Origin: a virus
Virus record (IMG/VR): IMGVR_UViG_3300046543_000082
Coordinates: 16,257 to 80,256 of that record
Direction: 5' to 3' (one strand)
Length of the DNA stretch: 64,000 bases
Shown: positions 23,518-64,000 of the stretch, piece after piece
Numbering within the stretch: position 1 is the stretch's first letter
Layout of the letters: every line of letters starts with the position of its first letter
Program-made: the position numbers and the translations under genes
The notes under the pieces: generated by a model
Database searches by the model: none
The model's input: the letters and a program-made list of their open reading frames with translations, nothing else
Told to the model about the DNA's origin: nothing

Positions 23518-23625
23518 TTAGCCAAACCTAATCCAGAAAGCAAGTCATACCTAACTATAAAGTTGCCCACGCCTAATTATTCGGACGCGAGCATACCTAA
23601 GATGCCACCTGATAGGCTTGCCTAA
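23518..23625. promoter_or_regulatory. Phage A OR-type operators, consensus TTAGG-N4-CCTAA
   Basis: Five 14-bp sites ending in CCTAA at 23518, 23541, 23563, 23587, 23612 (22-25 bp spacing). Confidence 0.7.
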
Positions 23626-24092
23626 TGAACTGGAACCGAAGAATTACTGAAGCCAGAGAAGCCCGCTCGATGTCCAAGGCGGAGTTGGCGCGCGCCTGTA
23701 ATGTGTCGGCGCCGACCGTGACCGACTGGGAAAGCGGGAAAATAAAAAACCTCGACGCGGCCAATATGCTGACGATCTGCGAGGTTTTGGGAGTCGAACC
23801 CCGGTGGCTAGTGTGGGGATTTGAGAGCGGCAAATCGCCGAACAGAGGGGACTTCGTGCCTATTACCGGCGAAGCAAAAAAGCTAATTCAGTGCGTCATG
23901 CGTCTGGACAAGGGGGGGCCAAAAGTACGACAAACGTTTGCTTACACTCTCGGCATCCTTGAAATTGTCGAAAGATTGGGATTGGTACATGATGCCGATG
24001 TGGTGGCCGAGCTTGCAGAACAGGAGCAGCTCTTGGCACTCCACGCCGAGCCATCTAGGGTTTTAAAACATGCCCCCCGCAAGCACAAATGA
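23625..24092 (+). CDS. cI: CI-like repressor (phage A): XRE HTH, no S24 peptidase domain
   Basis: SKAELARACNVSAPTVTDWESG...WLVWG; short helical C-terminus shared with cI-B. Confidence 0.8.
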   Translation: MNWNRRITEAREARSMSKAELARACNVSAPTVTDWESGKIKNLDAANMLTICEVLGVEPRWLVWGFESGKSPNRGDFVPITGEAKKLIQCVMRLDKGGPKVRQTFAYTLGILEIVERLGLVHDADVVAELAEQEQLLALHAEPSRVLKHAPRKHK

Positions 24093-24141
24093 AAAAACCA
24101 TCGTCAGCATGGACCTTTACCGGCAGCGTCGAACTGTCGAA
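23882..24141 (+). repeat. Direct repeat copy 1 (cI 3' half + small ORF start)
   Basis: Matches 63741-64000 with five synonymous mismatches by eye; may extend beyond the window. Confidence 0.92.
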
Positions 24142-24243
24142 TCCAAGCAGAAGGAGTCAACCGATCCGGCCGAAGAAGCGTTAAACGAAATCGCCCGATA
24201 CCTTCTGATGGCCGTTCGCGTCATCACGGCTAGGCGTCACTGA
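24070..24243 (+). CDS. 57-aa protein co-transcribed with cI
   Basis: MPPASTNEKTIVSMDLYRQRR...ARRH; overlaps cI end, followed by terminator; repeated at 63929. Confidence 0.6.
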   Translation: MPPASTNEKTIVSMDLYRQRRTVESKQKESTDPAEEALNEIARYLLMAVRVITARRH

Positions 24244-24250
24244 ATTCCCC

Positions 24251-24274
24251 TCCCGCTTCGGCGGGATTTTTTTT
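24251..24274 (+). terminator. Intrinsic terminator of cI transcript
   Basis: TCCCGC-TTCG-GCGGGA + T8. Confidence 0.85.
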
Positions 24275-24283
24275 GTCTTTTCG

Positions 24284-24323
24284 GTATAGAACGCTTGACT
24301 CTACCGGTGTAGCGTCCTACACT
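24284..24323 (+). promoter_or_regulatory. pL-like early promoter with two phage-B-type operators
   Basis: TTGACT-17-TACACT overlapped by GTATAG-AACG-CTTGAC and GTGTAG-CGTC-CTACAC, 23 bp apart. Confidence 0.75.
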
Positions 24324-24749
24324 ACATCCATGCACTGAAGAACAAGCAGCGCATCGGATAGCCCGGCAACGTGAGTTGGGAATGTCTAGCCCGAACTGCA
24401 ATCGGGCCGACCGGATGACCTGGCGAAATCGGAGCCAGCGACGCGACAGAGCCGATGAAGTTTTATCAAGGCGTCTTGCTAAGGGCGCCGTGACAAAACC
24501 ACAAAGGGGATAGATATGACGATCAAATTCCGCACGTTTAACGTTGTTCGTGGCACACACAACCTTCGCGTGAAGGTCTGGCTTAAACAACTGCGCTCGG
24601 AGGCTATGTGAGCGACCTCGCACTTGACTTAATCGAACTGAAGCGCCTCGCTGCTGGCGGCATGGGCGCTTTGACCGAAAAACTGTTGCACGAAGTAGCG
24701 GCTCGGATCATCGCTTCGGGGCTGCGTGACTTTCGGGAGGGATGCTGAC

Positions 24750-25088
24750 ATGGAAGCGAAAGAAAGGCTTACCGCACGCATGGAACGCGTCTACACCGCA
24801 GACGGCAAACACATCGTCACTGTATGGGCCGAGTCCGTCGACTGCAAGGCGCAGACGGGCGAATCTTATCTCGGCATGCGCGATCGCACGGAACCGATGC
24901 GGATTTCGGCTCAGCAGCAGACGTTTGACCGTGCTCGTCTGTTCGCCGCCGCTCCTGACCTTCTCGAAGCGCTGATCTTGCTTGAAGCGGAAATGGTTCT
25001 TTCCGGCAATGCCGGGGCGACTGATTACGGATGGAAGCCTGCGATCGAAAAGACGCGCGCCGCTATCGCCAAAGCCACCGGAGACTGA
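24750..25088 (+). CDS. Hypothetical early protein (RLFAAAPDLLEAL family)
   Basis: GGAGG SD; common phage motif A.L.AAAPDLLEAL...AAIAKATG. Confidence 0.6.
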   Translation: MEAKERLTARMERVYTADGKHIVTVWAESVDCKAQTGESYLGMRDRTEPMRISAQQQTFDRARLFAAAPDLLEALILLEAEMVLSGNAGATDYGWKPAIEKTRAAIAKATGD

Positions 25089-25419
25089 CATGGAACTCGC
25101 AATCATATTCGCGGTACTCGGGTTTGGTGATTGGTTTCTTTTCGGGTGGACGCGATGAGATACGGATGCACTGTGATCAACGCGACCCGGCTCGGCGAGT
25201 TTCTCTACGACAAAGAGCTTGCCGAGTACGACGACGAAGGATACGACGGTTGGATCGACGACGGCGATAGAAGCGACGAGCAATTCGACCGGATGGACAG
25301 ACAAAACGAACTGAGGTGAGCGATGAAACATCCGTTATTGGCTTGGGTGGCTGCGGTTAGTGTCGGTCTTCTCTCGGGAAGCGTGATTGTGATGTCGGCG
25401 ACGGGCTTGGGGTTCTGAG

Positions 25420-25626
25420 ATGAAGACATACCACTACGCCGACAAGCGGCCAAGCATCTACCCGCAATTCATGATGGATGATTTCGGCGACGAGATCATG
25501 ACGGTTCATGAAGTGACGCCGGACATCGATAGCTTCCAGATCAAGATGCATCCGGATACGTATTGGCACATTTTCGACTTGTCCGGAAAAGTGCTTGAGT
25601 GGGCAGACGGCCACGATGAGGAATAG
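25420..25626 (+). CDS. Hypothetical early protein
   Basis: 68 aa within run of small coupled early ORFs. Confidence 0.45.
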   Translation: MKTYHYADKRPSIYPQFMMDDFGDEIMTVHEVTPDIDSFQIKMHPDTYWHIFDLSGKVLEWADGHDEE

Positions 25627-25999
25627 ATCATGTGGATGCTAATTGGCTACTTCGCCATCGGATCGACACTGGCGATTGCGTTTATTCGGGGTGCGCGATG
25701 AAACTTGTAACGGAGCAAGAATTGAATAAATGCGTAACGCTGAGCGATTTGGCGGTCGGCATTGCAGTAGGCGCGATCATGGGCCTCGTGTTCTACGGTG
25801 CGCTTCTCGTCGGGATCGGATGAGATGCTCAAACTCGCGAAGATATGGGCCGCAACCATGCTTCTCGCGCTGCTCTACCTGATGGCAGGCGGCTTGATGG
25901 ATAGCTTGGAGCAGCGTGCAGAACAGTGCCGCACCGTTCATTGCACGTAGGCGCGTAGTACAACTAATGTCGGAATCACGGTCAACTTGGATAACCGTA

Positions 26000-26506
26000 A
26001 TGGACGAAAAATTAACGCATTGGAAGAGATTGGTTAACCCGGATTACATAGGCGCCTACGCGCTTGATCCGGATCAGGACCTGACCGTGACTATCGACTA
26101 TGTGACACGGGAAGCAGTTAAGGGGACTGGGGGGAAGTCGGAAGAGTGCACTGTGGCGCACCTAGTCGGTCAGAAGCCGTTGATTCTCAACGCGACGAAT
26201 TCGAAGTCGATCCATCGCTTGTATGGACCCTACATAGAACAATGGAGCGGAAAGCAGATTACTTTGTTCGCCAGCACCACGCGCATGGGCGGTGAGACTG
26301 TTGAGTGTCTTCGCATCCGCGCCACGGTAGCCAAGCCAGCTAAGAAGCGAATCGATGACGCTCGGTTGAACAAGGCGATTGAATCAATCAAGGGTGGCCA
26401 GTATACGACTGGAAAGCTCCGCGCTCAGTTCGATCTGACACAAGAGCAAGAAACGAAGGTTGACGAAGAGATAAAAGCGCATATGGAGTCCAGCCATGAA
26501 GAATGA
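26000..26506 (+). CDS. Putative ssDNA-binding/recombination protein
   Basis: THWK...NPDYIGAY.L, KPLILNATN...I..LYG..IE.W.GK.ITL; directly upstream of exonuclease. Confidence 0.5.
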   Translation: MDEKLTHWKRLVNPDYIGAYALDPDQDLTVTIDYVTREAVKGTGGKSEECTVAHLVGQKPLILNATNSKSIHRLYGPYIEQWSGKQITLFASTTRMGGETVECLRIRATVAKPAKKRIDDARLNKAIESIKGGQYTTGKLRAQFDLTQEQETKVDEEIKAHMESSHEE

Positions 26507-26542
26507 CAGAACAAGCCGAAAGAAGAAAACTTGGAGGCATGT

Positions 26543-27172
26543 ATGACGTTCCGAATCCGCGCAAGCTCACTTGGGAAAATAATGGCCGAGCCGAAGAACA
26601 AGGGCGAAATACTTTCCGTGGGAGCGAAAACCTACGTTGAGGAACTGGCTAAAGAGTTTGTTTATGGGTTTCAGCGCGTCATCACATCAAAGGAAATGGA
26701 CAAAGGAATCATCGTTGAAAACGCCTCCATTGCGTTGCTCAACGATGTGATGTTCGCCAGCTATGTGAAGAACGCCGAGCGGAAGAACAATGATTGGCTG
26801 ACCGGTGAGTGCGACATCTTCACAGGCTCGAAGATCATCGATATCAAGTCGTCGTGGTCGCTCCAGACATTCCCCGCTACGGTGTTTGCCGGACGTGATA
26901 CGGGCTACGAATGGCAACTTCGTTCGTACATGATGCTATGGGATGTTGATGAGGCAGAGATCGCCTACTGTCTCGTCACGACGCCCGATGAACTGATCCG
27001 GTTCGAACCAACCGAGATTCATTACGTCGATCACATCGATCCGGCTCTGCGCGTTACTCGCGTCCCGTACCAGCGCGACAAGGCGCTCGAAGAGAAGATC
27101 AAGGCGAAAGTCGAAGCGGCTCGTGCGTACTTCGATGAGGTAGTCGAACTGATCGCAATCGAGCACGCGTAA
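26543..27172 (+). CDS. YqaJ/lambda-exonuclease-like protein
   Basis: RASSLG.IM, M.KG...E, TGECD...IIDIKSSW, YEWQL..YM.L. Confidence 0.75.
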   Translation: MTFRIRASSLGKIMAEPKNKGEILSVGAKTYVEELAKEFVYGFQRVITSKEMDKGIIVENASIALLNDVMFASYVKNAERKNNDWLTGECDIFTGSKIIDIKSSWSLQTFPATVFAGRDTGYEWQLRSYMMLWDVDEAEIAYCLVTTPDELIRFEPTEIHYVDHIDPALRVTRVPYQRDKALEEKIKAKVEAARAYFDEVVELIAIEHA

Positions 27173-27247
27173 TGACCGGAAGCGACATCGTGCTTGCTGT
27201 AATCGCTGCGATGTATGTCTTGCATTTTTTAATCGAAAGGATATGAG

Positions 27248-28048
27248 ATGACGAAGATTGATCTTGAGTCGGTAGTTCTGAAGAGTGGCGCACATGAGTC
27301 GCCGGAAGACGGTATGTGTCTGCTCGAAGTCGTGAGCATGTTTGCCGATGAGGATTTCGGAGACTCGCCGGCGTGCGTTGATTCGATCCTCGCTCAGTTT
27401 GGGCGGTCATGGAATGACGGAATGCGCTCCGACGCTGAGCGCGCCCAATTGAAGCAATACATCGCACGGCTACCCGGCACGAACAAGGGTTCGGCGCTCT
27501 CGCAAAAGCGAGGATGGATGGCGCTTGACTGGCTTATTCGTGTGCACACGGCAGCGTGGCTCGCTTTGAATCCCGGCCTCGTGCATCACGCCGAAACGCT
27601 CAAAATGCTACCGCCGATTACCTGCTCGGCCGATCTCGTTGCGGCACAACCGAAGCTCGATGCAGCAAAGAAAGATGCGGCCGCCGCATGGGCCGCCGCA
27701 GGGGCCGCCGCACGGGACGCCGCATGGGACGCCGCATGGGCCGCCGCACGGGCCGCCGCACGGGACGCCGCATGGGCCGCCGCATGGGCCGCCGCACGGG
27801 ACGCCGCAGGGGACGCCGCACGGGCCGCCGCACGGGACGCCGCATGGGACGCCGCATGGGCCGCCGCAGGGGCCGCCGCACGGGCCGCCGCACGGGACGC
27901 CGCATGGGCCGCCGCATGGGACGCCGCAGGGGCCGCCGCACGGGACGCCGCAGGGGACGCCGCAGGGGCGAAACTTGAACCCACCGTTATTGAATTGCAG
28001 GCGAGCGCCCACGAACTATTTTCGCGGATGATCGAAGCAACCGAATAA
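27248..28048 (+). CDS. Ala-rich tetrapeptide-repeat protein
   Basis: L..GAH...DGMCLLE...F.DSPACV N-domain + 24 x AA[W/R/G][A/D]. Confidence 0.7.
   Translation: MTKIDLESVVLKSGAHESPEDGMCLLEVVSMFADEDFGDSPACVDSILAQFGRSWNDGMRSDAERAQLKQYIARLPGTNKGSALSQKRGWMALDWLIRVHTAAWLALNPGLVHHAETLKMLPPITCSADLVAAQPKLDAAKKDAAAAWAAAGAAARDAAWDAAWAAARAAARDAAWAAAWAAARDAAGDAARAAARDAAWDAAWAAAGAAARAAARDAAWAAAWDAAGAAARDAAGDAAGAKLEPTVIELQASAHELFSRMIEATE
27683..27970 (+). repeat. 24 x 12-bp tandem repeat GCCGCA[T/C/G]GGG[A/C]C
   Basis: Counted directly; only positions 7 and 11 vary (last unit ends GCG). Confidence 0.92.
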
Positions 28049-28213
28049 CCAAAGCGCATCGCGCCGGACACGATAGAAGGATGGTTCGCACGATACGCGC
28101 CGATGGCTCGCTGGGCGCCCTGAAGGAACTACCTTGGTGGCGCAAACCTTCGGTTGTCGTCTAACTCACCCCACAAAGACCGCCGCTCTCACGCACCTAC
28201 GAGGATTGAAGAC

Positions 28214-29122
28214 ATGACCAACGGAAATAGCGCGGAGCGGGAACGCTTCGAAGAATGGGCTTTCGATATGGGCTACCGTAACTTCACGTATAGCGAGGAG
28301 TTCCACGGATATACGGAGGAAAGCATTCAACGCGTCTGGTTTGGCTGGAAAGGTGCGCTGTCGGTTTTCGCCGATGGCGGCAAAGAGCAGGTGACTGCGA
28401 CTATGGGTGAGGTGGTGTATCAGGTTCAGACAGGCGATTGCTGGCTCGACATGACGCAGGAGCAATACGAGCAGCACTCAAAAACGCGGCCGACACGAGT
28501 CTTGTACACCGCCCCGCAAGCCGAGTGCGCACCGCGTGGGGCGGTTGGTTACGCAGAGGTGTGTGATGGAAGTGGTGGCGATTTCACTATGGCGGTATTC
28601 AATTCCTCAGACGTTCCCGAGGGTGCCGCACTATTCACCGCCCCGCAAGCCGAGTGCGCACCGCGTGAGAAACAGAACGTGATGAACATTCCGCTTGACG
28701 CTGCCGCTACGATGGCTGATTACGCCCCGCAAGCCGAGTGCGCACCGCTGCCGAAGCAGGAACCGCTTGGCGAACCGTTTCAAACGGTGCTGGACGAGAA
28801 CCGATGGAATCTCTATGCCGAGTGCACACCGCGTGAGGCGCATCCGGTGGCGTATTTGGTCGATCCGGGCGCAGGTTCCGCCGTAGATAAGTTCCAGACC
28901 AACAAGCCGGATTATTTGCAGTTGGTGGACATCAAGCGGCGCGGGGGAAGCGTTACGCCGCTATACGCAGCCCCTACGCCTGAGCGTGCGCAGGAATCGG
29001 AAGGCGTGTTGACGGACGGAGAATTAATTGCGATTAGCAACGCATTGCAAGGAACCGGATACGCACATATCGCGGATAAATTGCGCGCCATTCTCGCCGC
29101 CAACAAGGAGCCGCAACCGTGA
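28214..29122 (+). CDS. Mosaic ea-region protein with repeated TAPQAECAPR linkers
   Basis: Start trimmed to MTNGN; ERERFE.W start, PVAY...PLYAAP segment. Confidence 0.65.
   Translation: MTNGNSAERERFEEWAFDMGYRNFTYSEEFHGYTEESIQRVWFGWKGALSVFADGGKEQVTATMGEVVYQVQTGDCWLDMTQEQYEQHSKTRPTRVLYTAPQAECAPRGAVGYAEVCDGSGGDFTMAVFNSSDVPEGAALFTAPQAECAPREKQNVMNIPLDAAATMADYAPQAECAPLPKQEPLGEPFQTVLDENRWNLYAECTPREAHPVAYLVDPGAGSAVDKFQTNKPDYLQLVDIKRRGGSVTPLYAAPTPERAQESEGVLTDGELIAISNALQGTGYAHIADKLRAILAANKEPQP
28507..28837 (+). repeat. Four dispersed in-frame direct repeats (CACCGCCCCGCAAGCCGAGTGCGCACCGCGTG)
   Basis: 28507-28538 and 28636-28667 identical; partial copies 28723-28748 and 28817-28837; periods 129, 84, 84 bp. 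Confidence 0.88.
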
Positions 29123-29424
29123 CCAAAGCATTTACCGCAGTCTTTCTGAATGTCACGCCGGAAGAAGCCGGAGAAATTACGAACCACCCAAAATGGTCGG
29201 CAGGCTCATGGAGCCACGCGCTTGACGACAGAAATGCGGCGCAGATCGACGCCGAGCGAGCGCGTGAAGAACGGAACCGCGAGCATGTCCGCCTCAATGC
29301 TGAGTGGATGGCGAAGTGCGAGGAGTTGCGGAAGTTCGTCGAAGAGATCGCCTTGGGGAATATCGACCCGGACAAGATCGCTGGTAAAGCCCGGAGTCTG
29401 GTGGCGAAGAAGGAGGGAGCGTAG
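29119..29424 (+). CDS. Hypothetical coiled-coil protein
   Basis: 101 aa, GTGA-coupled. Confidence 0.5.
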   Translation: MTKAFTAVFLNVTPEEAGEITNHPKWSAGSWSHALDDRNAAQIDAERAREERNREHVRLNAEWMAKCEELRKFVEEIALGNIDPDKIAGKARSLVAKKEGA

Positions 29425-29610
29425 ATGAGCGAGCTTCTCACACCTGACGAAGTGGCTTCGAAATTGAAGATCGAACGCCGCTCTTTCTTGCGTACAGTAG
29501 CCAAGCAGCCGGACTTCCCGGCGCCGATTCGGATCGGTCCAAGAATCCTACGCTGGCATGCAGAGCATGTTGCTCAGTGGATCGAGCGAAGCACGCGCCG
29601 TGCGGCCTAG
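29425..29610 (+). CDS. xis: Excisionase (AlpA-like HTH)
   Basis: LLTPDEVA..L.I...DFPAPIRIG...RW; adjacent to integrase. Confidence 0.75.
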   Translation: MSELLTPDEVASKLKIERRSFLRTVAKQPDFPAPIRIGPRILRWHAEHVAQWIERSTRRAA

Positions 29611-30602
29611 TCCAGTTTGGCCGCCAACTCTTCGGGCGTCGGGTTGTAGTAGATCAGCAATGATTTCAAATCCCGATGCCCGATCACGCGCGCAAGCTCC
29701 AAGACGGTCAACTTATTGGAAAGCCGAGTACAAGCCTCGTGGCGGCTGTCGTGAAAATGCAGAGTTGTGATACTTGGCATTTCCTTTGCGGCCTTCTGGC
29801 GCGCCTTTCTGAAAAGCGTACCGAGCGATTGGCCGTGGAACGTGAAAACATTCGTTTCGTGGCGACCCCGGAGTTTTGCGATTAGATCGACAGCTCGCTT
29901 TGATAGCGGAACATGGCGCTCATCATAGTTCTTCGTCTTGCTCAGGTGGACGCTTCTTGGGCTGACTTCCGGCCAATGTAGAGAGCATAGTTCACCGACG
30001 CGCATCCCTGTTTCGATTGCCAGCATGAAAGCGACAGCCATTTCCTGCTGTTTTGTCGTAACCGGTTGATCTTCCGAATAACCCAATGCCGAGCACATGA
30101 TTTTTATTTCCGACTCGGAAACACGTCTGTTGCGTGGCTTCGGATCGCGCGGACGCTTCACGTCTTCAAATGGGATCGAATCGAGCCATCGCCATTCTTT
30201 CCTCGCTATCTGGAAGACGGACATAAGCAGGTTCCATTCTCGATTCACGCTGGCTGCTGATACCTCTTTCAATCGAGCGTCGCGCCAAATGGCAATGTCA
30301 GTCTGCGTGACCTCGCTGATTATCTTGTTCCTGAATGGAAGTTCTCGACCGAGCTTGGCGAGGCGGACACGTTCCCATCGCTCGCCTTTCTTGGTCGGCG
30401 CCACTTCCTCTGCGTACTTGACGAGCGCTTCTGAGACGAAACGCTTTGGCAAATCACCTCTGACGCCTGCTAGTATTTCCGCCTCGCGAGCAGTCGCCCA
30501 TGCGACAGCCTGGGCCTTGGTCGGGAACGTGTCAGAATCCCGCACACCGGCCTTCTCGATCTCTGCCCGCCATCCCTTGGAACGCTTCCTGTAGTACGCC
30601 AT
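29607..30602 (-). CDS. int: Tyrosine integrase
   Basis: TGMRVGEL, HDSRH, GHRD...Y catalytic motifs. Confidence 0.93.
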   Translation of the reverse strand: MAYYRKRSKGWRAEIEKAGVRDSDTFPTKAQAVAWATAREAEILAGVRGDLPKRFVSEALVKYAEEVAPTKKGERWERVRLAKLGRELPFRNKIISEVTQTDIAIWRDARLKEVSAASVNREWNLLMSVFQIARKEWRWLDSIPFEDVKRPRDPKPRNRRVSESEIKIMCSALGYSEDQPVTTKQQEMAVAFMLAIETGMRVGELCSLHWPEVSPRSVHLSKTKNYDERHVPLSKRAVDLIAKLRGRHETNVFTFHGQSLGTLFRKARQKAAKEMPSITTLHFHDSRHEACTRLSNKLTVLELARVIGHRDLKSLLIYYNPTPEELAAKLD

Positions 30603-30612
30603 AGCCGCTCCT

Positions 30613-30631
30613 TGGCGGGAAAATGGCGGGA
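30613..30631 (+). promoter_or_regulatory. Integrase arm-type site pair (left of core)
   Basis: TGGCGGGA x2, 11-bp period. Confidence 0.65.
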
Positions 30632-30764
30632 TTCTATCGTAAACAGATTCGGATATTGGCCTGTAGCGGATCGATTAGGCTTTTGTGATCACGCCGCAAC
30701 TCGTTGAAAACGTTATCTAAACGCTCGTATTGGCGCGAGATGTGTTTTGATGTACCATTCAATC

Positions 30765-30786
30765 TCAAGTCCGGTCCCCGGCACCA
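30765..30786 (+). other. att core = tRNA 3'-end fragment (tRNA-Leu-like)
   Basis: TCAAGTCCGGTCCCCGGCACCA: T-loop/acceptor 3' end with CCA; no 5' half upstream. Confidence 0.75.
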
Positions 30787-30821
30787 CGACATCTATAGTT
30801 CATAAGGGATTCCGTCATGCT

Positions 30822-30840
30822 TGGCGGGATGGTGGCGGGA
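30822..30840 (+). promoter_or_regulatory. Integrase arm-type site pair (right of core)
   Basis: TGGCGGGA x2, 11-bp period. Confidence 0.65.
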
Positions 30841-30854
30841 TCGACTCTCTAACC

Positions 30855-55857: not shown

Positions 55858-55866
55858 TTTATTCTC

Positions 55867-56181: not shown

Positions 56182-56185
56182 TGGC

Positions 56186-56371
56186 TCAGTACGCCTCTTT
56201 TTGCGCAATTGACCTGAAATATTCGGCCGCTTTCCGAAAGTCTGTAGCCGAGATGGCGATTCGCGGATAAAGACGGCCGCCGTCCATTCCAACCCATCTG
56301 TCCATTTCCCATCGGCCGCACTTGTATCGAATGCGCGGCTTTAGGCGTGGGCGGGTGAAGTCATTGTCCAT
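56186..56371 (-). CDS. Hypothetical protein
   Basis: 61 aa, KPRIR...GRW; TAATG-coupled to upstream micropeptide. Confidence 0.45.
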   Translation of the reverse strand: MDNDFTRPRLKPRIRYKCGRWEMDRWVGMDGGRLYPRIAISATDFRKAAEYFRSIAQKEAY

Positions 56372-56451
56372 TACAGGTTCGCCTTATCGCTCGGTTCGCA
56401 GCAGCGCTCATCGGGTGTCCGCAACTTGCGAGCACACCACCAGCAGCGCAT
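56371..56451 (-). CDS. Cys-rich micropeptide (26 aa, MRCWWCARKLRTPDERCCEPSDKANL)
   Basis: GGAG SD; homologue of 16323-16400. Confidence 0.55.
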   Translation of the reverse strand: MRCWWCARKLRTPDERCCEPSDKANL

Positions 56452-56462
56452 TTCCGGCTCCG

Positions 56463-56490
56463 AATAGAAAAAGCCCGCGCAGGGCGGGCT
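56463..56490 (-). terminator. tR'-like late leader terminator
   Basis: AGCCCGC/GCGGGCT stem + T-run on minus strand. Confidence 0.7.
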
Positions 56491-56583
56491 AAACCTGCGG
56501 GGGATTCGCAGGAGAGGAGATGGGATGTCTTTCCATCAGTCAGCTACGGGGATAGCGGTGGCACAGCGTGAAGGCAAAAACTC

Positions 56584-56652
56584 AATCTAGCAAAATTGTA
56601 CGTTTTAAGAGGGTATGTGTGAACTAGCGTGATGTGAACACAAACGGTTCAC
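56584..56652 (-). promoter_or_regulatory. pR'-like late promoter (phage B)
   Basis: Same TTCACA-17-TACAAT, TAGATT and GTGAAC-N7-GTTCAC as 16481-16549. Confidence 0.65.
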
Positions 56653-57044
56653 GCCATTTCCTCTTCTTGCTCCATCACCGGCTGACCATTCAGCATAGCG
56701 CGATAAGCTCGGTGCGCCTCGGCTCTGAACGTCCGAAGCTGCCGGTAGAAATACGATGTCGAGAATCCCATCTCATGCGCGATTGCCTTGATGTTCTTGG
56801 CGCGGTGCAGGTAAAAGAGATAGAAGATGAATTTCGCTTGGCTTTCCTTCTGTGCGAGAACGGATAGATTGAAATAGCTCAGGTTCGCGCTCAGCAGAGC
56901 GTCAGGCACTTCGCCGCCTCCGGCTGGTCCGCGCATGCGTGCAAGGATGTTGGCTGGCACAGGAGGCGCGAATAGGCGCCTGGAACGGTGCCACTCGGCC
57001 CAGCGGAGGCAGAACAAATGCAATTCTTGGTTTTCTTCGGTCAT
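56649..57044 (-). CDS. Late-gene regulator (Q-like)
   Basis: Near-identical to 16721-17128. Confidence 0.65.
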   Translation of the reverse strand: MTEENQELHLFCLRWAEWHRSRRLFAPPVPANILARMRGPAGGGEVPDALLSANLSYFNLSVLAQKESQAKFIFYLFYLHRAKNIKAIAHEMGFSTSYFYRQLRTFRAEAHRAYRAMLNGQPVMEQEEEMA

Positions 57045-57319
57045 TTTCTTCCACCGTAAAGTCGTTCGATCGTTGCCGCGAGGCAATCTAGTTCGCTTAC
57101 CTTCACCACTTCCCACATGCGCCGCTGACCGTGGATTCCGTTGAAACTTCCCTGGTGGCAGTCTTTGCACAACGGAATCACGCAGAATCCTGGGCTTTTC
57201 CTTCCTGGCGTGCGGCCGGCGAGAATGTGATGCGCATCGCTCGGGCCATGCGTGCCACATACGGCGCAGTCGAGTTCCTTCACGCGCGCAATGTGAAGTC
57301 GTTCGGCTGCGGCTGTCAT
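57041..57319 (-). CDS. Ref-like/HNH-type zinc-binding nuclease
   Basis: Same protein as 17125-17403. Confidence 0.7.
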   Translation of the reverse strand: MTAAAERLHIARVKELDCAVCGTHGPSDAHHILAGRTPGRKSPGFCVIPLCKDCHQGSFNGIHGQRRMWEVVKVSELDCLAATIERLYGGRK

Positions 57320-57660
57320 AGCGCCCTCGCTTCTGCCCGTTGGTTTGCTCCGATGGAGCGCCATACCTCTACCCGAGCCTGAGCAGCCACCATCAGCCAG
57401 CGGAGCCGCTCCTCCGTCTCTACGGCCGTCTGAAGCGATTCCAGCAGCGCGCAATACTCGTCGCTGGCATATGCTTCACGCTCCTGCGCTGCGGTCGTCT
57501 TGTGGCCTCCCGTCTCAGCCTGCTGCATCATCAGCGCTTTCTGGCTCTTCCTAAACTCTTCGAGGTAGACACGTTCGGCCTTGGCCTTTGCGAGAGCCGT
57601 CGCGTTATCCCTCATGAAGTCGAGCGCACGGAAGATGTTGATCTCGCTTTCGTCGCTCAT
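57316..57660 (-). CDS. Conserved coiled-coil phage protein (replaces ninB)
   Basis: AKAKAERVYLEEFRKS.KA.LM...AQEREAYA...WRS..AN.R.E. Confidence 0.6.
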   Translation of the reverse strand: MSDESEINIFRALDFMRDNATALAKAKAERVYLEEFRKSQKALMMQQAETGGHKTTAAQEREAYASDEYCALLESLQTAVETEERLRWLMVAAQARVEVWRSIGANQRAEARAL

Positions 57661-57848
57661 TCCGGCTCCTGCATCGCCATCCGACTAGGCAGCACACGCA
57701 TTTCAACGGCCGGACCATGCGCCTCAAGCAGCGCGACCTGCGCCGCGAGCCACGTTCTCCAATGCGCTTCCTTCACCGACGCCAGAAGGCATCCGCCGGC
57801 CTCTCGATAAAACTTTTCGAACTGTTCCCGACCATTGAGTACGCTCAC
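57657..57848 (-). CDS. Hypothetical nin-region protein
   Basis: GTG start; homologue of 18007-18183. Confidence 0.55.
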   Translation of the reverse strand: MSVLNGREQFEKFYREAGGCLLASVKEAHWRTWLAAQVALLEAHGPAVEMRVLPSRMAMQEPE

Positions 57849-57981
57849 GACATCACCCCCATCCAATACGAGCACGCTATGAGCGCGTAAATTGCCGAAA
57901 ATTGCCAGTCCCGAGCGCCGATTCGCCTTGTCCCTAGCACGCATGCCGTCGTAAACGCTATTGCAGTGAGAACGCCGATGG

Positions 57982-58194
57982 TCATTTCTGCTCCTCCGTC
58001 AGACCGCGCCAACGGTCCATTTCGTAGATGATCGGCGCACGAAGCATGTCGCGATCGCTCAACCGAAAGTCGCCGAGCTTCCAGTAATAGCGACGGTTCT
58101 TTTCGTCCGCTCCGTTCTGGTAAATAATCTCCACGTCATACCAGCCCTCTCGGATTGGCGGTGTCGCGCATGGAATCCATTCGGTGAGATTCAT
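57982..58194 (-). CDS. Hypothetical nin-region protein
   Basis: Same protein as 18180-18392. Confidence 0.65.
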   Translation of the reverse strand: MNLTEWIPCATPPIREGWYDVEIIYQNGADEKNRRYYWKLGDFRLSDRDMLRAPIIYEMDRWRGLTEEQK

Positions 58195-58276
58195 TTCTGC
58201 TCCTGCTGAACTGGCTTGGTCCAGTCTCGGCGCTTGATGCCGAGCGCGATCCAAAGGGCGTCGAAGTCGGCGGGGA

Positions 58277-58624
58277 TCATGCTGCCGCCCCGAAGAATGC
58301 AGCTATGAACGGATCACGCAGGGGAACGAACTTGCTCACCTGAGCAGTCTTTCGCGCGATCATTTCAAGTTCGCATTTCGTGATGCGCTGCGCGTCCTGC
58401 CCCGATCCCGGGCCGAATACTTTCGTAGGCTGATTCGTTCGAAGTTCGCTGATGCGGTATTCAGCGATATGGACTAGCCCTTCGTCCTTCAGACGCGCCA
58501 GCCGCTTGCGGACAGTCTCAGGGTTAGCTCCGAACCGTTCGGCCAGTTCTGCGTTCGTCTGCGGCCTCTCAAGCAAGCCATTGAGAATCTGAGCCGTCAG
58601 ATAGACGTTGCGCTTGGATTTCAT
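58277..58624 (-). CDS. Winged-HTH protein
   Basis: P.T..ELAE..G...ETVRK.L..L...GLVHI. Confidence 0.6.
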   Translation of the reverse strand: MKSKRNVYLTAQILNGLLERPQTNAELAERFGANPETVRKRLARLKDEGLVHIAEYRISELRTNQPTKVFGPGSGQDAQRITKCELEMIARKTAQVSKFVPLRDPFIAAFFGAAA

Positions 58625-59121
58625 GCTGGCCTCCCGAACAGAGCTGCCGTGATTGGATCAATCTGGATGGCGTTCTTCTTTACCGGCTTGCTGGCAACAA
58701 TCGCCGTAGGAATGCCGGCACGCTGCGATTTCGGCGGATATGGCATGTCAGGCTCATTACCCATCGCGAACCGGCGTGAAAGCTTGCCGTTGCGTGTCTC
58801 GATATAGCTGGCGATGTAGATTCGCTTCTTTGCGCGCAACTTGCGTAGGTGCTGATCGACCAGACGCCGATCGCATAGCAGCATTTCGCCCATTTCGAAT
58901 GAACTCAGCGGAGCATGGTTCTTCAGCAACTTGATCACGCATTTTTCGACCTGCGGCTTTGGACCGGGCTTGCGATGTCCAGCCCCGATCCATTGACCGC
59001 GCATCCGGATTGCTGCCTCAGTGCGCCCCGGCAGGAGCCGCATCGCATCAGAGAACGGCTCATTCGTTTTCCAGAACGCCCGCAAGATATCGTCTTCCCG
59101 CTCAGTCCATCTTTTACTCAT
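58621..59121 (-). CDS. Putative DNA-binding protein (Myb/SANT-like start + winged HTH)
   Basis: WTEREDDIL...LPGRT..AI. Confidence 0.55.
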   Translation of the reverse strand: MSKRWTEREDDILRAFWKTNEPFSDAMRLLPGRTEAAIRMRGQWIGAGHRKPGPKPQVEKCVIKLLKNHAPLSSFEMGEMLLCDRRLVDQHLRKLRAKKRIYIASYIETRNGKLSRRFAMGNEPDMPYPPKSQRAGIPTAIVASKPVKKNAIQIDPITAALFGRPA

Positions 59122-59133
59122 CCCTTCCCCCGT

Positions 59134-59361
59134 TTAGTCTTCAAGACCTGCCAAATAATCGATTGAGCATTCCAACACTTGAGCCATTTCCACCACGATT
59201 AAGAATTTCGGCATTGCACCGCGGTTCTCAATGGCCGATATCGTGCTAGGGAAAACTCCCACCTGCGCCGCAAAATCGCGAAGCCCGAATCCACGGCGAA
59301 CGCGCTCGGCTTTGAGCCTCGTCCCGAAATCTCCAGTACCCGGCTTGCGTGCGAATGCCAT
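59134..59361 (-). CDS. XRE HTH regulator
   Basis: FG.RLK.ER.RRG...FAAQVG...TIS.IE...P...MAQVLECSIDYL.G. Confidence 0.75.
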   Translation of the reverse strand: MAFARKPGTGDFGTRLKAERVRRGFGLRDFAAQVGVFPSTISAIENRGAMPKFLIVVEMAQVLECSIDYLAGLED

Positions 59362-59371
59362 GACTGATCCT

Positions 59372-59704
59372 TTAGCTCACGTCGACAATGCGATGACGCC
59401 ATTCCTTTGCCTTCGCGTCCCACTTCCAGCCAATCACCTGCAGCGTCCAACCCAATTTCCTGACTTCGGCAATATGGTCCGACTCGGCTATCTTCTTCAC
59501 CCGCGCCGGAACGTTGCTCCAACTGGTCGGCTGTAATCCGAGTACTTCGCCGTCCTTGATCGCTATCTGGTCCAGAATCCCGAATAGATCGACTCGGATG
59601 TTTGCGCCAGGTATGAACCTCTCGACAGTCCACACGATCCACCCGTCTTTCTTGAGCAGCTCGGCGGTGAGTGCGCTCGGCGACCTAGTCATTTTTGTTC
59701 CCAT
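59372..59704 (-). CDS. PD-(D/E)xK-type nuclease (resolvase-like)
   Basis: Homologue of 19840-20166. Confidence 0.55.
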   Translation of the reverse strand: MGTKMTRSPSALTAELLKKDGWIVWTVERFIPGANIRVDLFGILDQIAIKDGEVLGLQPTSWSNVPARVKKIAESDHIAEVRKLGWTLQVIGWKWDAKAKEWRHRIVDVS

Positions 59705-59798
59705 CGTTCACAGCTTCCGTTCCCATTCACGAAATGCCACTCCGCCAGCCAAACGCAATTCCTATATCCCAACCGGTACATCGGCTTGTGCCCGGGCT

Positions 59799-60737
59799 TC
59801 ACACTGGTATGGCGGCATGATCTGCAGTTCTTAGGTCCGCCCAATCCATCCCCGGTTGAGGCGGAATCCGTACCGACGCCTCGATTCCCTTCAACATCAG
59901 CCGCTTCGCCAGAGAGAACGCCGCCGCCTGCCCCGTGTAACTCAGATCGTTGTCTGCACATACCACCACCTCTCGAATGCCTTGCGGCGGTTCCCACTTT
60001 TCCATTACAGAAGCGTTCGACGCTGACCAGACAGGGAGCCCAAACATCACCGAGGCCGCTAGCGCCGTCTCGATCCCTTCCGCTATTCCAATCACCGGGG
60101 CTATTCCGCTCAACCTCACGCATGAGCCATTTATCGGCAGGCCCTGCATCAACTTCTTCGCCTTCTCGATCGGCGCCTTATTGCCGTCTGGCGTCAGGTA
60201 CGTTCGATGTACCGATGCGCCGTCACCGTTCGCGTATCGCATGACTGCCAACATCGCCGGGAACTTCTGCTTCTCGTCCGAGTGCCACAATGCCGGGTGA
60301 TACCAGAGGTCGCGCGGCGCACGCTCTATCCCTGTCCGCCGGTTCAAGTAGGTCCATACCGGATCACCCTTTTCGACGTGCCTGGCGCTTTCCAGCGTTC
60401 GCCGGATTCGCACCTTTACTTCTCCTTCGTTCTCTTTGTCCTGGACCGGGCGAAGCCTTGCCGTTCCAATCACCCGGTCTATCTCGCACATGGTTCGCTT
60501 CCAGTCCCAGCCGTATGTCTTCTGAAGCAAATCCACCCCGTCACCACTACCGCACTGGTTACAAATCCAGCCTCCCTTCCCTTCCCAGTCGGTGAATCTG
60601 TACCGGTCCTTACCCCCATTGCAGATCGGGCATGACGTGTGTCCCTTCTGCAAAAACTTCGCTTCAACCCCGAGTGACAGCAGGATGTCGCGCCACCGGC
60701 CCTGAGCCTCATCGACCGTCCGGCGTTTAGGATTCAC
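59799..60737 (-). CDS. DNA primase (zinc finger + TOPRIM)
   Basis: CPIC.GGKDRYRF...C.QCG.GDG; IAEGIETALA; CADND. Confidence 0.85.
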   Translation of the reverse strand: MNPKRRTVDEAQGRWRDILLSLGVEAKFLQKGHTSCPICNGGKDRYRFTDWEGKGGWICNQCGSGDGVDLLQKTYGWDWKRTMCEIDRVIGTARLRPVQDKENEGEVKVRIRRTLESARHVEKGDPVWTYLNRRTGIERAPRDLWYHPALWHSDEKQKFPAMLAVMRYANGDGASVHRTYLTPDGNKAPIEKAKKLMQGLPINGSCVRLSGIAPVIGIAEGIETALAASVMFGLPVWSASNASVMEKWEPPQGIREVVVCADNDLSYTGQAAAFSLAKRLMLKGIEASVRIPPQPGMDWADLRTADHAAIPV

Positions 60738-62250
60738 GCTTGAACCCCTTGTTCTTGAAATGTCTGAGATTGCAGTAAGTCACGAAATCTTTCGTCTCTT
60801 GGCTTGGCTCAACAGCGAACCGATCCAGACCGCGCGGCCAAACGCCAAACTTATCGCGATATAGATGTGCGACGCGGCCATCCGAGTATCCCCGAATCGC
60901 TGAAAGACCAAGCAATTCCGAATAGAAGCTTTGCTTGTCCAAAGCCGTTGCTTTCTTGGTCTTCTTCATCAGCGCCAGTTCGCCGTCTAGCACTTCGACA
61001 TCAGACTGGCGCTCCGGCTCGAATCCGCACGACGGGCACTTATGAACCTTTACCGGCTTCATGAACGAACACGACTGGCATGCCTTCGGAAGCGGGACTT
61101 CCTTTTCTTGCGACTGATTCTTCGACGTGCGCGGCTTACCGTCGTCGAGTGAGAGCGGAAGATCGTCTGTCGGGAACCCGAGCCGCTTCACAGTGCCGGA
61201 ATGGTCCAGAACCAGCGCTTTCTCTTTCCCTTCGTGCGGCCGAAGAACGCGGCCGACCATCTGGATATAGCGAATCAGGCTCTTGGTCGGACGGGCAAGA
61301 ATCAGCGTTTCGCAGAAGGGAGCGTCCCAGCCTTCCGCCAGAAGCGCGGAATTGCTGATGATCTTTGTCTCACCCGTTTCGAATCGCTTCAGAACTGCGC
61401 GCCGCTCGTCCGAGTCGTCGTAGCAGTCGATGTGCTCCGCCTTCACCCCAGCGGCGCAGAATTGCTCAACGATGTGCTTGCTATGAGCAATGTTCGAGGC
61501 GAAGACGACCGTTGACGTGTTCCGTGCCAACTTGAACCAGTGCGAAACGATGTCGCCAATCAGCTCCGGTTTGTCCGCCGCACGGCCAACGTCTGTATCG
61601 GAATAATCAACCTCACCGAACCTGTTACGGCTCTGCTTTATGCCGGCCATATCCGGCTCGGACGGTGCGTAGATATCGCAGTCCACCAGATAATCCTGAG
61701 CGATCAGGCTGCTGATGTCCGATGCAACGATCATGTCCTCGAATAGCGGGCCACCAAGCTCGTCATGGTGCTGACCCAGCCCCTTCGAAAACGGCGTGGC
61801 ACTCAGGCCAATAACGGGCTTCCCTGCGAAATTCCGAATGATTTCCTTGTAATCCTTGGACCCGGGGACGCAATGCGCCTCATCGATGATGATGAAATCA
61901 AGATTTTCCGGAATCCCGCGTGATGCGACAGTCTGAATCGAGCAGATCATCACATGCTCATAGGTCCGGCAAGTGTTCGTCGACTGCAATATGCCGTGCT
62001 GAATCCCGTATCGACGGAACACGCTGGATGTCTGATTAACAAGGTGCTCGCGGTTCACGAAGAACCCGACTCGCTTGTTTTTGAGGCGAGCGAACTGGAC
62101 CAGCCCTACGCTCATGATCGTCTTCCCGCTTCCCGTTGGCGAATAGACCATCAGCCGCTCCACCTTCGCCTTCAGGGCTTTGCGGAGATTGGCGATAGCG
62201 GTTCTCTGATACGGCCTGAGCATTCCGTCGATGGTGCTAAAATCTGTCAT
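60727..62250 (-). CDS. Superfamily II (DEAH) helicase with C-terminal zinc finger
   Basis: LRPYQ, SPTGSGKT, IIDEAH, GLSATP, EGWD.P, QMVGRVLR, C..C...C..CG. Confidence 0.9.
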   Translation of the reverse strand: MTDFSTIDGMLRPYQRTAIANLRKALKAKVERLMVYSPTGSGKTIMSVGLVQFARLKNKRVGFFVNREHLVNQTSSVFRRYGIQHGILQSTNTCRTYEHVMICSIQTVASRGIPENLDFIIIDEAHCVPGSKDYKEIIRNFAGKPVIGLSATPFSKGLGQHHDELGGPLFEDMIVASDISSLIAQDYLVDCDIYAPSEPDMAGIKQSRNRFGEVDYSDTDVGRAADKPELIGDIVSHWFKLARNTSTVVFASNIAHSKHIVEQFCAAGVKAEHIDCYDDSDERRAVLKRFETGETKIISNSALLAEGWDAPFCETLILARPTKSLIRYIQMVGRVLRPHEGKEKALVLDHSGTVKRLGFPTDDLPLSLDDGKPRTSKNQSQEKEVPLPKACQSCSFMKPVKVHKCPSCGFEPERQSDVEVLDGELALMKKTKKATALDKQSFYSELLGLSAIRGYSDGRVAHLYRDKFGVWPRGLDRFAVEPSQETKDFVTYCNLRHFKNKGFKRES

Positions 62251-62685
62251 CTGCTTCGACTCCTTGTCAGTCGTTGTGGATTCGGGGTCTGTCGCGTTCG
62301 CAGCGCTTCAGGCCCCTTTCTCTTTGCCGGCGCGCCTCGCGCACACGGAATACCTACCTACTAACTACTCTCCTGACGGCGGGGTTTTAGGGAACCGGGC
62401 AGAGTTCCCCCTACCCACGGAGAAAACTCCGATTCCAAAACGTGCCGGTCAGTAACCAGGCCTCGTGGCGGATAGCAGCCCCACAAGTTGTCCAGACTGT
62501 CGGTCGCCTGCTAGCAACCCCTACCCCGCTCTAGACGTTCGTTCCCACGGTTGGCATTTGGTACGCGCTATGCCTTTCAATCGAGTCGCGCCGTTTCTAG
62601 CCGTCTCCCCTCGATCGATCCTGCTACCGCCCGGGTGTTCGGAGAACCCGGTTACGCCTCTCTGACTTCGGCGCGGTAAGTACTA

Positions 62686-62886
62686 CTATTTTTCATCTAG
62701 AAGCATCCCTCGGTGAGACGCTTCAAAACTTGCAACTATCGGGTGAGATACGCCGTAAGCGCTTCGCAGCACGTGATACCCGATCAAAACCTGTATATCC
62801 AAACCCCTGCGTATTGCATCGAAGAGTAATTTTTCCGCTTCTGGGACCGGAATCTCGGCCGCCAGGAGCGTATTACCGTCTTTCAT
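62686..62886 (-). CDS. Hypothetical early-right protein
   Basis: 66 aa, ATGA-coupled with GGAGG SD. Confidence 0.5.
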   Translation of the reverse strand: MKDGNTLLAAEIPVPEAEKLLFDAIRRGLDIQVLIGYHVLRSAYGVSHPIVASFEASHRGMLLDEK

Positions 62887-63107
62887 GCGTCCTCCACCGT
62901 CTCCATCTGAGACACCTCAGCGCTGACGGCTATGAGATTCGCCGGCAAACTGCCAACAGTCCCAAACAAAAACAAGTCCACGATTCGATTGAGAGCTTCC
63001 GAGTCACTAGCTAGACGGTTGAGCGTCTTATAGGCCTGGATTCCTTCGTAAAGCCGGTCGTCAAGTCGAGTCCTGATTTCCGTTCGAAACTGAGCACGTC
63101 TAGCCAT
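62883..63107 (-). CDS. CII-position ribbon-helix-helix-like regulator
   Basis: EIRTRLDD.LYE.I...SDSEAL.RI; follows cro. Confidence 0.55.
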   Translation of the reverse strand: MARRAQFRTEIRTRLDDRLYEGIQAYKTLNRLASDSEALNRIVDLFLFGTVGSLPANLIAVSAEVSQMETVEDA

Positions 63108-63158
63108 AGCTACCTCATGAAAATGAATCCTCGTAACCGTGTTGGCCGTAACCGCGAT

Positions 63159-63365
63159 CTACGCCGCAGCTTGTTCGGGTTCAGCGATAAAGCTCGCCGG
63201 CACTGTCTTACCCATCTGAACCGCAGCGCCAATCACCATCGCCGTTCGTTTCTGGTCAAGGTCGGCCTTCCATTGCCAAACCGCTCCCCGCGAAATTCCC
63301 AGTGCGCGAGCGAGAGCGGCACCATTACCGAAAATCTCGATCGCCTGCTGCTTGGTCATGTTCAT
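63159..63365 (-). CDS. cro: Cro-like regulator (phage B)
   Basis: MTKQQAIEIFG..AALARALGISRGAVWQW; AAGGAG SD. Confidence 0.8.
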   Translation of the reverse strand: MNMTKQQAIEIFGNGAALARALGISRGAVWQWKADLDQKRTAMVIGAAVQMGKTVPASFIAEPEQAAA

Positions 63366-63390
63366 GCTCACTCCTTTAGGTCTGGACTCA

Positions 63391-63453
63391 GTATAGGGCA
63401 CTGTACCGCAGAAGGCAAGCGCTCTATACCGATTTGCGTATAGATTTCTGCAC
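63391..63453. promoter_or_regulatory. Phage B OR operators, consensus GTATAG-N4-CTATAC
   Basis: GTATAGGGCACTGTAC (63391), GGCAAGCGCTCTATAC (63414), GTATAGATTTCTGCAC (63438). Confidence 0.75.
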
Positions 63454-63951
63454 ATGAACTTATCAACCAGAATCCAGACCGTGCTCACCGAGGTCGGCAT
63501 CGATCAGGTCGAGCTGGCGCGCGTTATGGGCGTGACAAAGGGAACGGTCAACCAGCTTCTGAACGGCTCCATCCAGTCGCTGAAGCTCGAATACGCCGTG
63601 GGCGTGCAGGATGCGTTTGGCTATAACGCCGTCTGGCTGGTGCTCGGAAAGGGGCCAAAGAAGGGAAATTCGTCCGCAGACGAGGCTGTCGATTCATCGA
63701 ACAGATGCCAAAACCCCGTTCTTTCCTCCGAAGCGGACCGGCTAATTCAGTGCGTCATGCGACTAGACAAGGGGGGACCAAAAGTACGACAAACGTTTGC
63801 TTACACTCTCGGCATTCTTGAAATTGTCGAAAGATTGGGATTGGTACATGATGCCGATGTGGTGGCCGAGCTCGCAGAACAGGAGCAGCTCTTGGCACTC
63901 CACGCCGAGCCATCTAGGGTTTTAAAACATGCCCCCCGCAAGCACAAATGA
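63454..63951 (+). CDS. cI: CI-like repressor (phage B): XRE HTH, no S24 peptidase domain
   Basis: Q.ELAR.MGVTKGTVNQLL.G...WLVLGKG; last ~69 aa identical to cI-A. Confidence 0.8.
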   Translation: MNLSTRIQTVLTEVGIDQVELARVMGVTKGTVNQLLNGSIQSLKLEYAVGVQDAFGYNAVWLVLGKGPKKGNSSADEAVDSSNRCQNPVLSSEADRLIQCVMRLDKGGPKVRQTFAYTLGILEIVERLGLVHDADVVAELAEQEQLLALHAEPSRVLKHAPRKHK

Positions 63952-64000
63952 AAAAACCATCGTCAGCATGGACCTTTACCGGCAGCGTCGAACTGTCGAA
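63741..64000 (+). repeat. Direct repeat copy 2 (runs off window), including 5' part of the 57-aa ORF from 63929
   Basis: Matches 23882-24141. Confidence 0.92.

Follow-up and report, generated by a model that had tools for sequence, protein, structure and literature searches.

Mismatched operators downstream of a phage repressor gene probably mark the in-silico joining of two heteroimmune temperate podophages

The early-left promoter (pL) that follows the repressor gene cI-A in a rhizosphere-metagenome contig carries operators of a second repressor, cI-B, which is encoded further along the same contig; the question raised by this locus is whether two phages have exchanged their control regions or whether the sequence was put together in this order during assembly. 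The window analysed here comprises the final 64 kb of one contig of 80,256 bp (contig bases 16257-80256), so that window and contig end together. Phage A and phage B, two complete temperate podophage genomes of ~40 kb, stand in series in the contig, and the hallmark genes are doubled (two each of TerL, portal, major head, integrase, replication module and cI/cro); the unit genomes of relatives measure 38.5-42.3 kb, about half the length of the contig. A sequence-only reading had proposed that phage B is nested in phage A, or that the two have swapped early-left arms, and had added the caveat that the same picture would result from an assembly swap between the repeats. The evidence favours the caveat; probably, two distinct heteroimmune temperate podophages of ~40 kb, with a mosaic relationship to each other, were joined head to tail in silico to give the contig.

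Immunity region A begins with cro-A (23286-23486, minus strand), which encodes a 66-aa protein matching the P22_Cro-like family. The repressor gene cI-A (23625-24092, plus strand) encodes an HTH_3 N-domain, detected by Pfam, and a non-peptidase C-domain that is in common with cI-B. OR-A (23487-23625) has sites of the TTAGG-N4-CCTAA type at 23518, 23541 and 23563, 22-23 bp apart, with a further site at 23612; the same type and layout occur in relatives L019 and L026. These sites had been described as flanking cI-A; they exist, but only 5' of the gene, all of them in the cro-A/cI-A intergenic region. The cI stop codon is overlapped by a conserved 57-aa ORF (24070-24243, plus strand), for which a family search gave no match, and an intrinsic terminator (24251-24276, plus strand), conserved in relatives, follows the repressor gene and the small ORF. 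Immunity region B comprises cro-B (63159-63362, minus strand), also P22_Cro-like by family match, OR-B (63390-63453), in which a pattern scan finds three GTATAG-N4-CT.. sites at 63391, 63414 (minus strand) and 63438, and cI-B (63454-63951, plus strand), identified by family match; pR-B reads TTGCCT-17-TATACT from 63418 to 63390 on the minus strand. The S24 autocleavage domain of the lambda CI/LexA type is absent from these repressors, for which Pfam gives HTH domains only and the C-domain has no family match. Two relatives, L011 and L022, have long repressor forms that resemble the S24 type when judged by eye.

The promoter downstream of cI-A (24295-24323, plus strand) has the form TTGACT-17-TACACT; with its operators it occupies 24284-24323, the sole variable block between two conserved segments. 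The operator sites GTATAGAACGCTTGAC (24284-24299) and GTGTAGCGTCCTACAC (24307-24322) overlap the -35 and -10 hexamers. A pattern scan confirms that these two 16-bp sites are of the cI-B type and that an A-type site is missing from this pL; as had been claimed, the first site and the reverse-complemented 63414 site differ at two positions. Five distinct sites matching GTRTAG-N4-CT-N2-MC are present in the window, where about 0.13 are expected by chance: the two at pL, and those at 63391, 63414 (minus strand) and 63438 in OR-B. The 16 kb upstream of the window contains none, so the whole 80-kb contig holds only those five. When set in register the 40-bp promoter is identical to pR-B at 29 of 40 positions, while its best match to OR-A reaches 17 of 40, which is chance level. 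The early-left promoter and arm after cI-A are thus correctly described as carrying phage-B-type operators, with the shared 3' half of cI as the joint. Binding of CI-A to this pL through cryptic sites was also considered; it is rejected, as 24243-24335 contains no TTAGG/CCTAA pair.

In each of the six further immunity types that were compared, OR and pL carry operators of one type. These types are GTTTAG (relatives L001, L002 and L004), TGCAAG (L009 and L010), TTAGG-N4-CCTAA (L019 and L026), TACCC-N2-GGGTA (L022), ATTAG-N4-CTAAT (the cultured Burkholderia phage KL4) and TTAAAC/GTTTAA (a Burkholderia turbans LMG 29316 prophage). Matching across six types, as read from the sequences, points to what would be strong selection against mismatch. 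An A-like pL does exist in L019 and L026, immediately upstream of the same leader that follows pL in the window; if 24142-64000 is closed on itself, it forms a 39,859-bp phage B with OR and pL of one operator type. The same leader connects different immunity types to different first genes in relatives, and exchange at the leader border therefore happens in nature.

The leader (24331-24455, plus strand) is a structured RNA with covariation; three helices have 92.8% of cells paired and eight pairs with compensatory changes, compared with 21-48% in slid controls. As is the case for put/nut-type antitermination leaders, a conserved and apparently structured RNA stands at the start of the early operon; a comparison with Rfam gave no match to a described family even at E ≤ 1. 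Both this leader and the conserved C-domain of cI are real modules, common among Burkholderiales phages.

Both ends of the contig lie in these two modules. The contig ends in an exact 127-bp repeat of the cI 3' end (63874-64000), the internal copy of which is at 24015-24141, and starts with an exact 125-bp repeat of the pL leader, the internal copy of which is the leader at 24331-24455; these are the longest exact repeats in the contig, every other being 69 bp or shorter. The 127-bp repeat is part of a longer repeat, R1, comprising the 3' half of cI and the start of the small ORF (23863-24141 internally, 63722-64000 at the terminus). The direct repeat of at least 260 bp that had been reported at a distance of 39,859 bp is upheld, with 98% identity over 260 bp between 23882-24141 and 63741-64000, and is cut by the contig end. 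The internal copies of both exact repeats flank the promoter at 24295-24323; a promoter bracketed in this way by internal copies of the contig-end repeats is a de Bruijn-graph signature, although the start repeat of 125 bp and the end repeat of 127 bp make a reading with k=127 not perfectly symmetric. A related IMG/VR contig closes into a circle of 38,481 bp through a 97-bp terminal overlap within the same leader, and the contigs of several other relatives also end inside or beside the leader.

The repeat interval contains one complete phage gene set, as had been proposed. The early-left arm (arm Y, 24456-29610, plus strand), assigned to phage B, has small ORFs, an exonuclease gene (26531-27172), a repeat-containing ORF (27248-28048) and a Xis-like gene (29425-29610); the arm at the contig start (arm X) encodes Bet/Exo. 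A 331-aa tyrosine integrase (29607-30602, minus strand) and an attP-like non-coding region (30603-30854) with two 22-nt direct repeats, at 30611 and 30820, and phage DNA on both sides come next; tail fibre, ejection/virion, major head, portal, TerL, lysis and replication (helicase) genes are annotated in 30855-63107 on the minus strand. The integrase of unit B and that of unit A (404 aa) are unrelated: a single pairwise comparison gave short aligned segments only, at E = 8e-4, with nothing significant beyond family level. Both int/late-gene junctions are of the attP type and lead from phage DNA to phage DNA. Host DNA, attL and attR are absent across the 80 kb, the larger ORFs flanking both int genes all being phage genes; neither a tRNA nor a host gene turns up in the window or in the gene set inspected over the 80 kb. 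GC content and tetranucleotide profiles do not discriminate between arms X and Y and bodies A and B.

Depth in the likely source run was taken from k=31 contigs that are broken inside the repeats and bridge neither, so that the values are contig depths and not copy numbers. Summed contig depth is ~400-640 over R1 and the leader; zero-mismatch records unique to A have a depth of 38-48, and those unique to arm Y 69-83. The repeats are thus at 8-14 times the depth of their unique flanks and show several alleles at their borders, from which many phages in the sample are considered to share them. The unique contigs on the two sides of the junction differ ~1.7-fold in depth, and this counts as no more than a weak hint. 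Run X5 has cover over the A-specific region and none over 26014-26681; the missing cover carries no evidential weight.

An assembly join would arise as follows. Two phages of the Burkholderiales type, each with a KL4-like regulatory region, would co-occur in the rhizosphere metagenome as physically separate molecules and have two exact repeats in common: the cI 3' end with the small-ORF start (127 bp) and the pL RNA leader (125 bp). The block of ~190 bp between these repeats would hold the terminator and pL, with a promoter/operator part of ~45 bp specific to the immunity type. Two such circular genomes would form a figure-eight in a k=127 de Bruijn graph, through which the assembler may have taken the path leader, arm X, the body of phage A, cI-A, R1, pL(B), leader, arm Y, the body of phage B, cI-B and R1 before halting at the repeat. 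The promoter and early-left arm after cI-A would then be phage B's own, and the pL of phage A, predicted to have TTAGG-N4-CCTAA sites, would fall in the ~189-bp gap between the end and the start of the contig. In a sub-variant, the assembler would have treated the difference between the two pL forms as a 'bulge' and kept the commoner form. Genuine support from paired reads may lie behind the assembler's choice of the path from A through pL(B) to arm Y.

Searches for a further copy of either immunity region were negative. Exact-pattern scans of viral contigs gave no second contig with a B-type pL, OR-A or OR-B, and searches of viral, genome and metagenome contigs found no independent contig with cI-A or cI-B plus its own downstream pL; the predicted pL of phage A is unseen because no such contig carries it after cI-A. 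A repressor-alignment scan of genome contigs gave no match, and a scan of metagenome contigs with the cI-A protein gave, among the matches listed, three distant HTH proteins. No close relative of either immunity region is present in the phage collection, where the KL4 leader is the only match.

The two forms of exchange in the original proposal draw on the B-type operators and on the joint in the cI 3' half, both of which stand; the contig ends in hub repeats, the lack of host DNA and the unrelated integrases speak against them. It had further been predicted that a second early-left arm, an integrase and attR would lie beyond 64000. The arm and the integrase are indeed present, at the opposite contig end, where they lead directly into the lysis and tail genes of phage A; in place of attR the topology is that of a figure-eight or circle. 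This same topology is exactly what is expected if a circular phage B recombined with phage A in the cI 3' half or the leader to give a physical 80-kb heterodimer. Such a cointegrate is unlikely, even though phage recombinases could act on repeats of this length, recombination genes are present in both units (Bet/Exo in arm X, an exonuclease in arm Y) and exchange at the leader border is seen in relatives: it gives the same de Bruijn graph as two separate circles sharing a repeat, which short reads cannot separate, and the depth difference across the junction weakly hints against it. At twice the unit genome size of relatives it would not be packageable as such, and it would not be a resident prophage since there are no host junctions. 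In a cointegrate each pL would stand beside its own arm and both repressors would be made, leaving no functional operator mismatch.

A genuine arm-swapped recombinant, with cI-A and OR-A joined to a pL controlled by CI-B and maintained only together with phage B, is very improbable; recombination inside the conserved cI C-domain would give exactly the assembled sequence, but a mismatch between OR and pL is seen in none of the six other immunity types, pL would be unrepressed in a single lysogen, and linkage is unreliable given the contig breaks and the hub depth. Taken more broadly, there is only a slim chance that the junction is physically real, as a cointegrate or an arm-swapped hybrid made through the repressor C-domain, with the pL adjacent to cI-A under the other repressor; if true, two heteroimmune phages would be mutually dependent for stable lysogeny, a rare case of cross-wired repression circuits. 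If two prophages sat in tandem in a single bacterial attachment site and the contig broke off at the repeats, this would account for two related units in direct orientation and for an int/att region between them; however, a common attB is not expected because the integrases are unrelated, the DNA upstream of the phage A late genes is a phage early arm with int and not host DNA, and neither a tRNA in the window nor a host gene among those examined is found, so that this reading is largely refuted already and is extremely unlikely.

If the contig is indeed an assembly join, the practical consequence is that its two ~40-kb genomes need to be separated ahead of any downstream use. Such joins can be exposed at little cost, from the sequence itself, by operator typing with the OR = pL rule; the hazard is a routine one, as a metagenome contig of about twice unit length may consist of two related phages that were linked through conserved regulatory modules. 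Chimeras nevertheless make up <5% of large contigs overall in benchmarks (PMC5610896).

Among known systems, lambda dilysogens and tandem polylysogens likewise have two phage units in direct repeat; they have attL/attR and host DNA at their borders and one Int/att specificity, whereas here outer host DNA with attL/attR is absent and the two unrelated integrases do not share a specificity. The lambdoid immunity region of lambda and P22 has the same divergent cI-cro pair of HTH repressor and Cro, three OR operators spaced by ~23 bp, and the order cI, terminator, pL, early-left operon and xis/int; two operators of the OR type over the -35 and -10 of pL are also found, in the six relatives and in phage B if 24142-64000 is self-closed. 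The present regions differ in that the repressor C-domain is not an S24 peptidase, a 57-aa ORF and a conserved C-domain lie between OR and OL, and the int gene and the early-left operon are transcribed towards each other. Burkholderia phage vB_BmuP_KL4 (MH128984.1, Kelquatrovirus), a cultured phage with a complete genome of 42,250 bp, has the same layout of cro, repressor, small ORF, terminator, pL with two operators, homologous structured leader and early-left genes with an exonuclease; it differs in its ATTAG-N4-CTAAT operators and larger repressor and has ~80% identity over the leader core, the comparison being one of the regulatory region. The chimeric contigs of co-occurring related viruses (Roux et al. 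2017, PMC5610896) also consist of two genomes joined via a near-identical region, and the present contig has their length of about twice the unit genome, their duplication of single-copy hallmark genes, and a junction and ends in exact repeats of about the assembler k-mer length; it differs in that the joint is inside the immunity region, where it mimics an operator mismatch and not an obvious break in gene order.

The immunity region of the first phage unit (A) comprises two divergent HTH genes, cro-A (23286-23486, minus strand) and cI-A (23625-24092, plus strand), with OR-A sites of the TTAGG-N4-CCTAA type at 23518, 23541, 23563 and 23612 between them (positions are those of the window unless marked contig). 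Downstream of cI-A lie a conserved 57-aa ORF, an intrinsic terminator (24251-24276) and pL, a sigma-70-type promoter (TTGACT-17-TACACT, 24295-24323) whose -35 and -10 hexamers are covered by two 16-bp sites, GTATAGAACGCTTGAC and GTGTAGCGTCCTACAC. The pattern GTRTAG-N4-CT-N2-MC is found at five distinct places in the window, the two pL sites and three sites between cro-B and cI-B of the second unit (B), against a chance expectation of ~0.13; the 16 kb upstream of the window contain zero matches. Aligned in register, the 40-bp pL is identical to pR-B (reverse complement of 63390-63429) at 29/40 positions; its best match to OR-A, 17/40, is at chance level. The sequence-only reading had described these genes, sites and promoter accurately, and the direct repeat that it reported at an offset of 39,859 was confirmed (98% over 260 bp, cut short by the sequence end); it proposed that phage B is nested in, or arm-swapped with, phage A. 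The contig is instead quite probably two separate, ~40-kb heteroimmune phages joined in silico, in which case the "mismatched" promoter and the early-left arm after cI-A would be phage B's own.

The window covers bases 16257-80256 of a single 80,256-bp contig, and position 64000 is therefore the contig end. This end is identical to 24015-24141, and the start of the contig to 24331-24455, the transcribed leader that directly follows pL. A search for all exact repeats found these 127- and 125-bp copies to be the longest in the contig, the rest being at most 69 bp; therefore 24142-24330 (189 bp), which bears the terminator, promoter and operators, is the sole part of the regulatory module without a second copy. 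This geometry is that of de Bruijn graph output, with k ~127, for two circular genomes in which a pair of short shared repeats encloses a variable block. Two unique paths are robust, one from the leader through arm X and int to cro-A and cI-A (about 40.3 kb), the other from the leader through arm Y and int to cro-B and cI-B (about 39.5 kb); whether each path joins the other or closes on itself depends wholly on the assembler's repeat resolution. A related 38,481-bp IMG/VR circle (L020/L027, IMGVR_UViG_3300047444_000215) has its 97-bp terminal overlap inside the leader, and several other relatives' IMG/VR contigs also break there; it is the common leader that determines where contigs of this phage group break. 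In benchmarks, chimeric contigs are documented where co-existing viruses have highly similar regions, with more chimeras among large contigs from metaSPAdes than from MEGAHIT (PMC5610896).

Among the IMG/VR relatives the cI C-domain, small ORF, terminator and leader are common at 83-88% identity, and the ~45-bp promoter/operator block between these conserved segments is variable. In every case examined the operators in this block are of the type found in that phage's own OR (six types): GTTTAG (L001/2/4), TGCAAG/CTTGCA (L009/10), TTAGG-N4-CCTAA (L019/26), TACCC-N2-GGGTA (L022), ATTAG-N4-CTAAT (cultured Burkholderia phage KL4, MH128984.1) and TTAAAC/GTTTAA (Burkholderia turbans LMG 29316 prophage). 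The most important comparison for phage A is L019/26: the N-domain of their repressor is a homologue of the cI-A one (31% identity), and their OR has its three sites laid out as in OR-A. Two TTAGG-N4-CCTAA sites lie directly upstream of the same leader at their pL, and phage A would therefore be expected to bear an A-type pL. Such a pL is absent from the entire contig. If 24284-24323 is assigned to phage B, OR and pL agree again in B, as they would in A with the missing 189 bp.

Read depth was taken from k=31 contigs of the runs of a rhizosphere metagenome that is probably the contig's source; these contigs break inside the repeats, so none bridges the junction. The leader and R1 (the repeated cI 3' half and small ORF start) have a summed depth of about 400-640 and the unique flanks one of about 40-80, and several alleles occur at the repeat borders 24014, 24246 and 24456. 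Both modules are therefore common to many related phages of the sample, the worst situation in which to resolve repeats. On the A side (20104-23911) the unique records without mismatches have depths of 38-48, and those from arm Y (24701-26992) have 69-83. Contig depths do not equal copy numbers, and other phages may carry arm Y too, so this step hints only weakly that the two sides do not belong to a single molecule at 1:1.

A physical cointegrate, with phage B nested by homologous recombination, would give the same graph as two phages, but host junctions are absent, the size is twice the unit genome and depth steps across the junction; it is an unlikely account, and if true would leave no functional operator mismatch either. 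Less likely still are a true arm-swapped hybrid, in which pL would answer to the other phage's repressor and which is very improbable, and a tandem lysogen at the same site, which is scarcely credible. Host genes are absent from both int-to-late-gene junctions, a tRNA search of the window found none, and the 404-aa and 331-aa integrases resemble each other at family level only; together these results give no support to a tandem lysogen at one attB. The predicted second early-left arm and int are both present, but at the contig's other end rather than past the second repeat copy, and they lead back into phage A late genes; the attL to attR layout gives way to a figure-eight topology.

Units A and B are each a complete phage in a non-integrated state. 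Unit A (contig 1-40397) encodes the leader, Bet/Exo, a methyltransferase and the 404-aa integrase, followed by an O-acetyltransferase, endolysin, tail fibre, ejection proteins, major head protein, scaffold, portal, TerL, primase-helicase, replication initiator, cro-A and cI-A. Its O-antigen acetyltransferase-like gene (L031 7436-8587, contig coordinates), between int and the lysis/tail genes, is likely a lysogenic-conversion moron. Unit B (24331-64000) encodes the leader, small early genes, an exonuclease, a Xis-like gene, the 331-aa integrase with an attP-like region, tail fibres, virion proteins, major head protein, portal, TerL, amidase, helicase, cro-B and cI-B. Two 22-nt direct repeats (30611-30632 and 30820-30841), each with an internal GGCGGGA duplication, flank ~190 bp of non-coding DNA beside the integrase start and are plausible Int arm-type sites of attP. 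The early-left ORF at 27248-28048 contains ~30 tandem 12-bp units (27619-28026) encoding a tetrapeptide repeat; contigs of three other samples skip 27222-28054, with 35 different bases in its place, and the ORF is therefore a replaceable cassette.

As modules, R1 and the leader are both conserved and functional. Between OR and OL lie the repressor C-domain and the 57-aa ORF paired with it; the C-terminal domains of cI-A and cI-B are identical (23863-24243; 63722-64000), overlap the 57-aa ORF and match neither peptidase S24 nor another family, and the module is kept across at least four immunity types. The leader (24340-24455, and at the contig start) is a structured RNA of three helices, with 92.8% of cells paired (21-48% in slid controls) and eight pairs with compensatory changes. 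Among relatives it links different immunity types with different first genes, and is therefore a natural mosaic boundary, at which early-left arms reassort, as well as an assembly trap; at three loci (L029 202-421, L022 11666-11885 and L030 1707-1926) this leader stands between other pL/immunity types and first genes that resemble those of arm Y or arm X. In KL4 the strand opposite the pL promoter and leader carries an annotated "hypothetical protein" CDS (L032 3393-3788; MH128984.1 7942-8337), which is probably a mis-call. The leader, a candidate put/nut-like element, has no match in Rfam; it recurs at L032 3471-3593 and in L033, L034 and L035, and is present in rhizosphere phages that are heteroimmune, in Burkholderia phage KL4 and in prophages of B. 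turbans, B. cenocepacia and Orrella.
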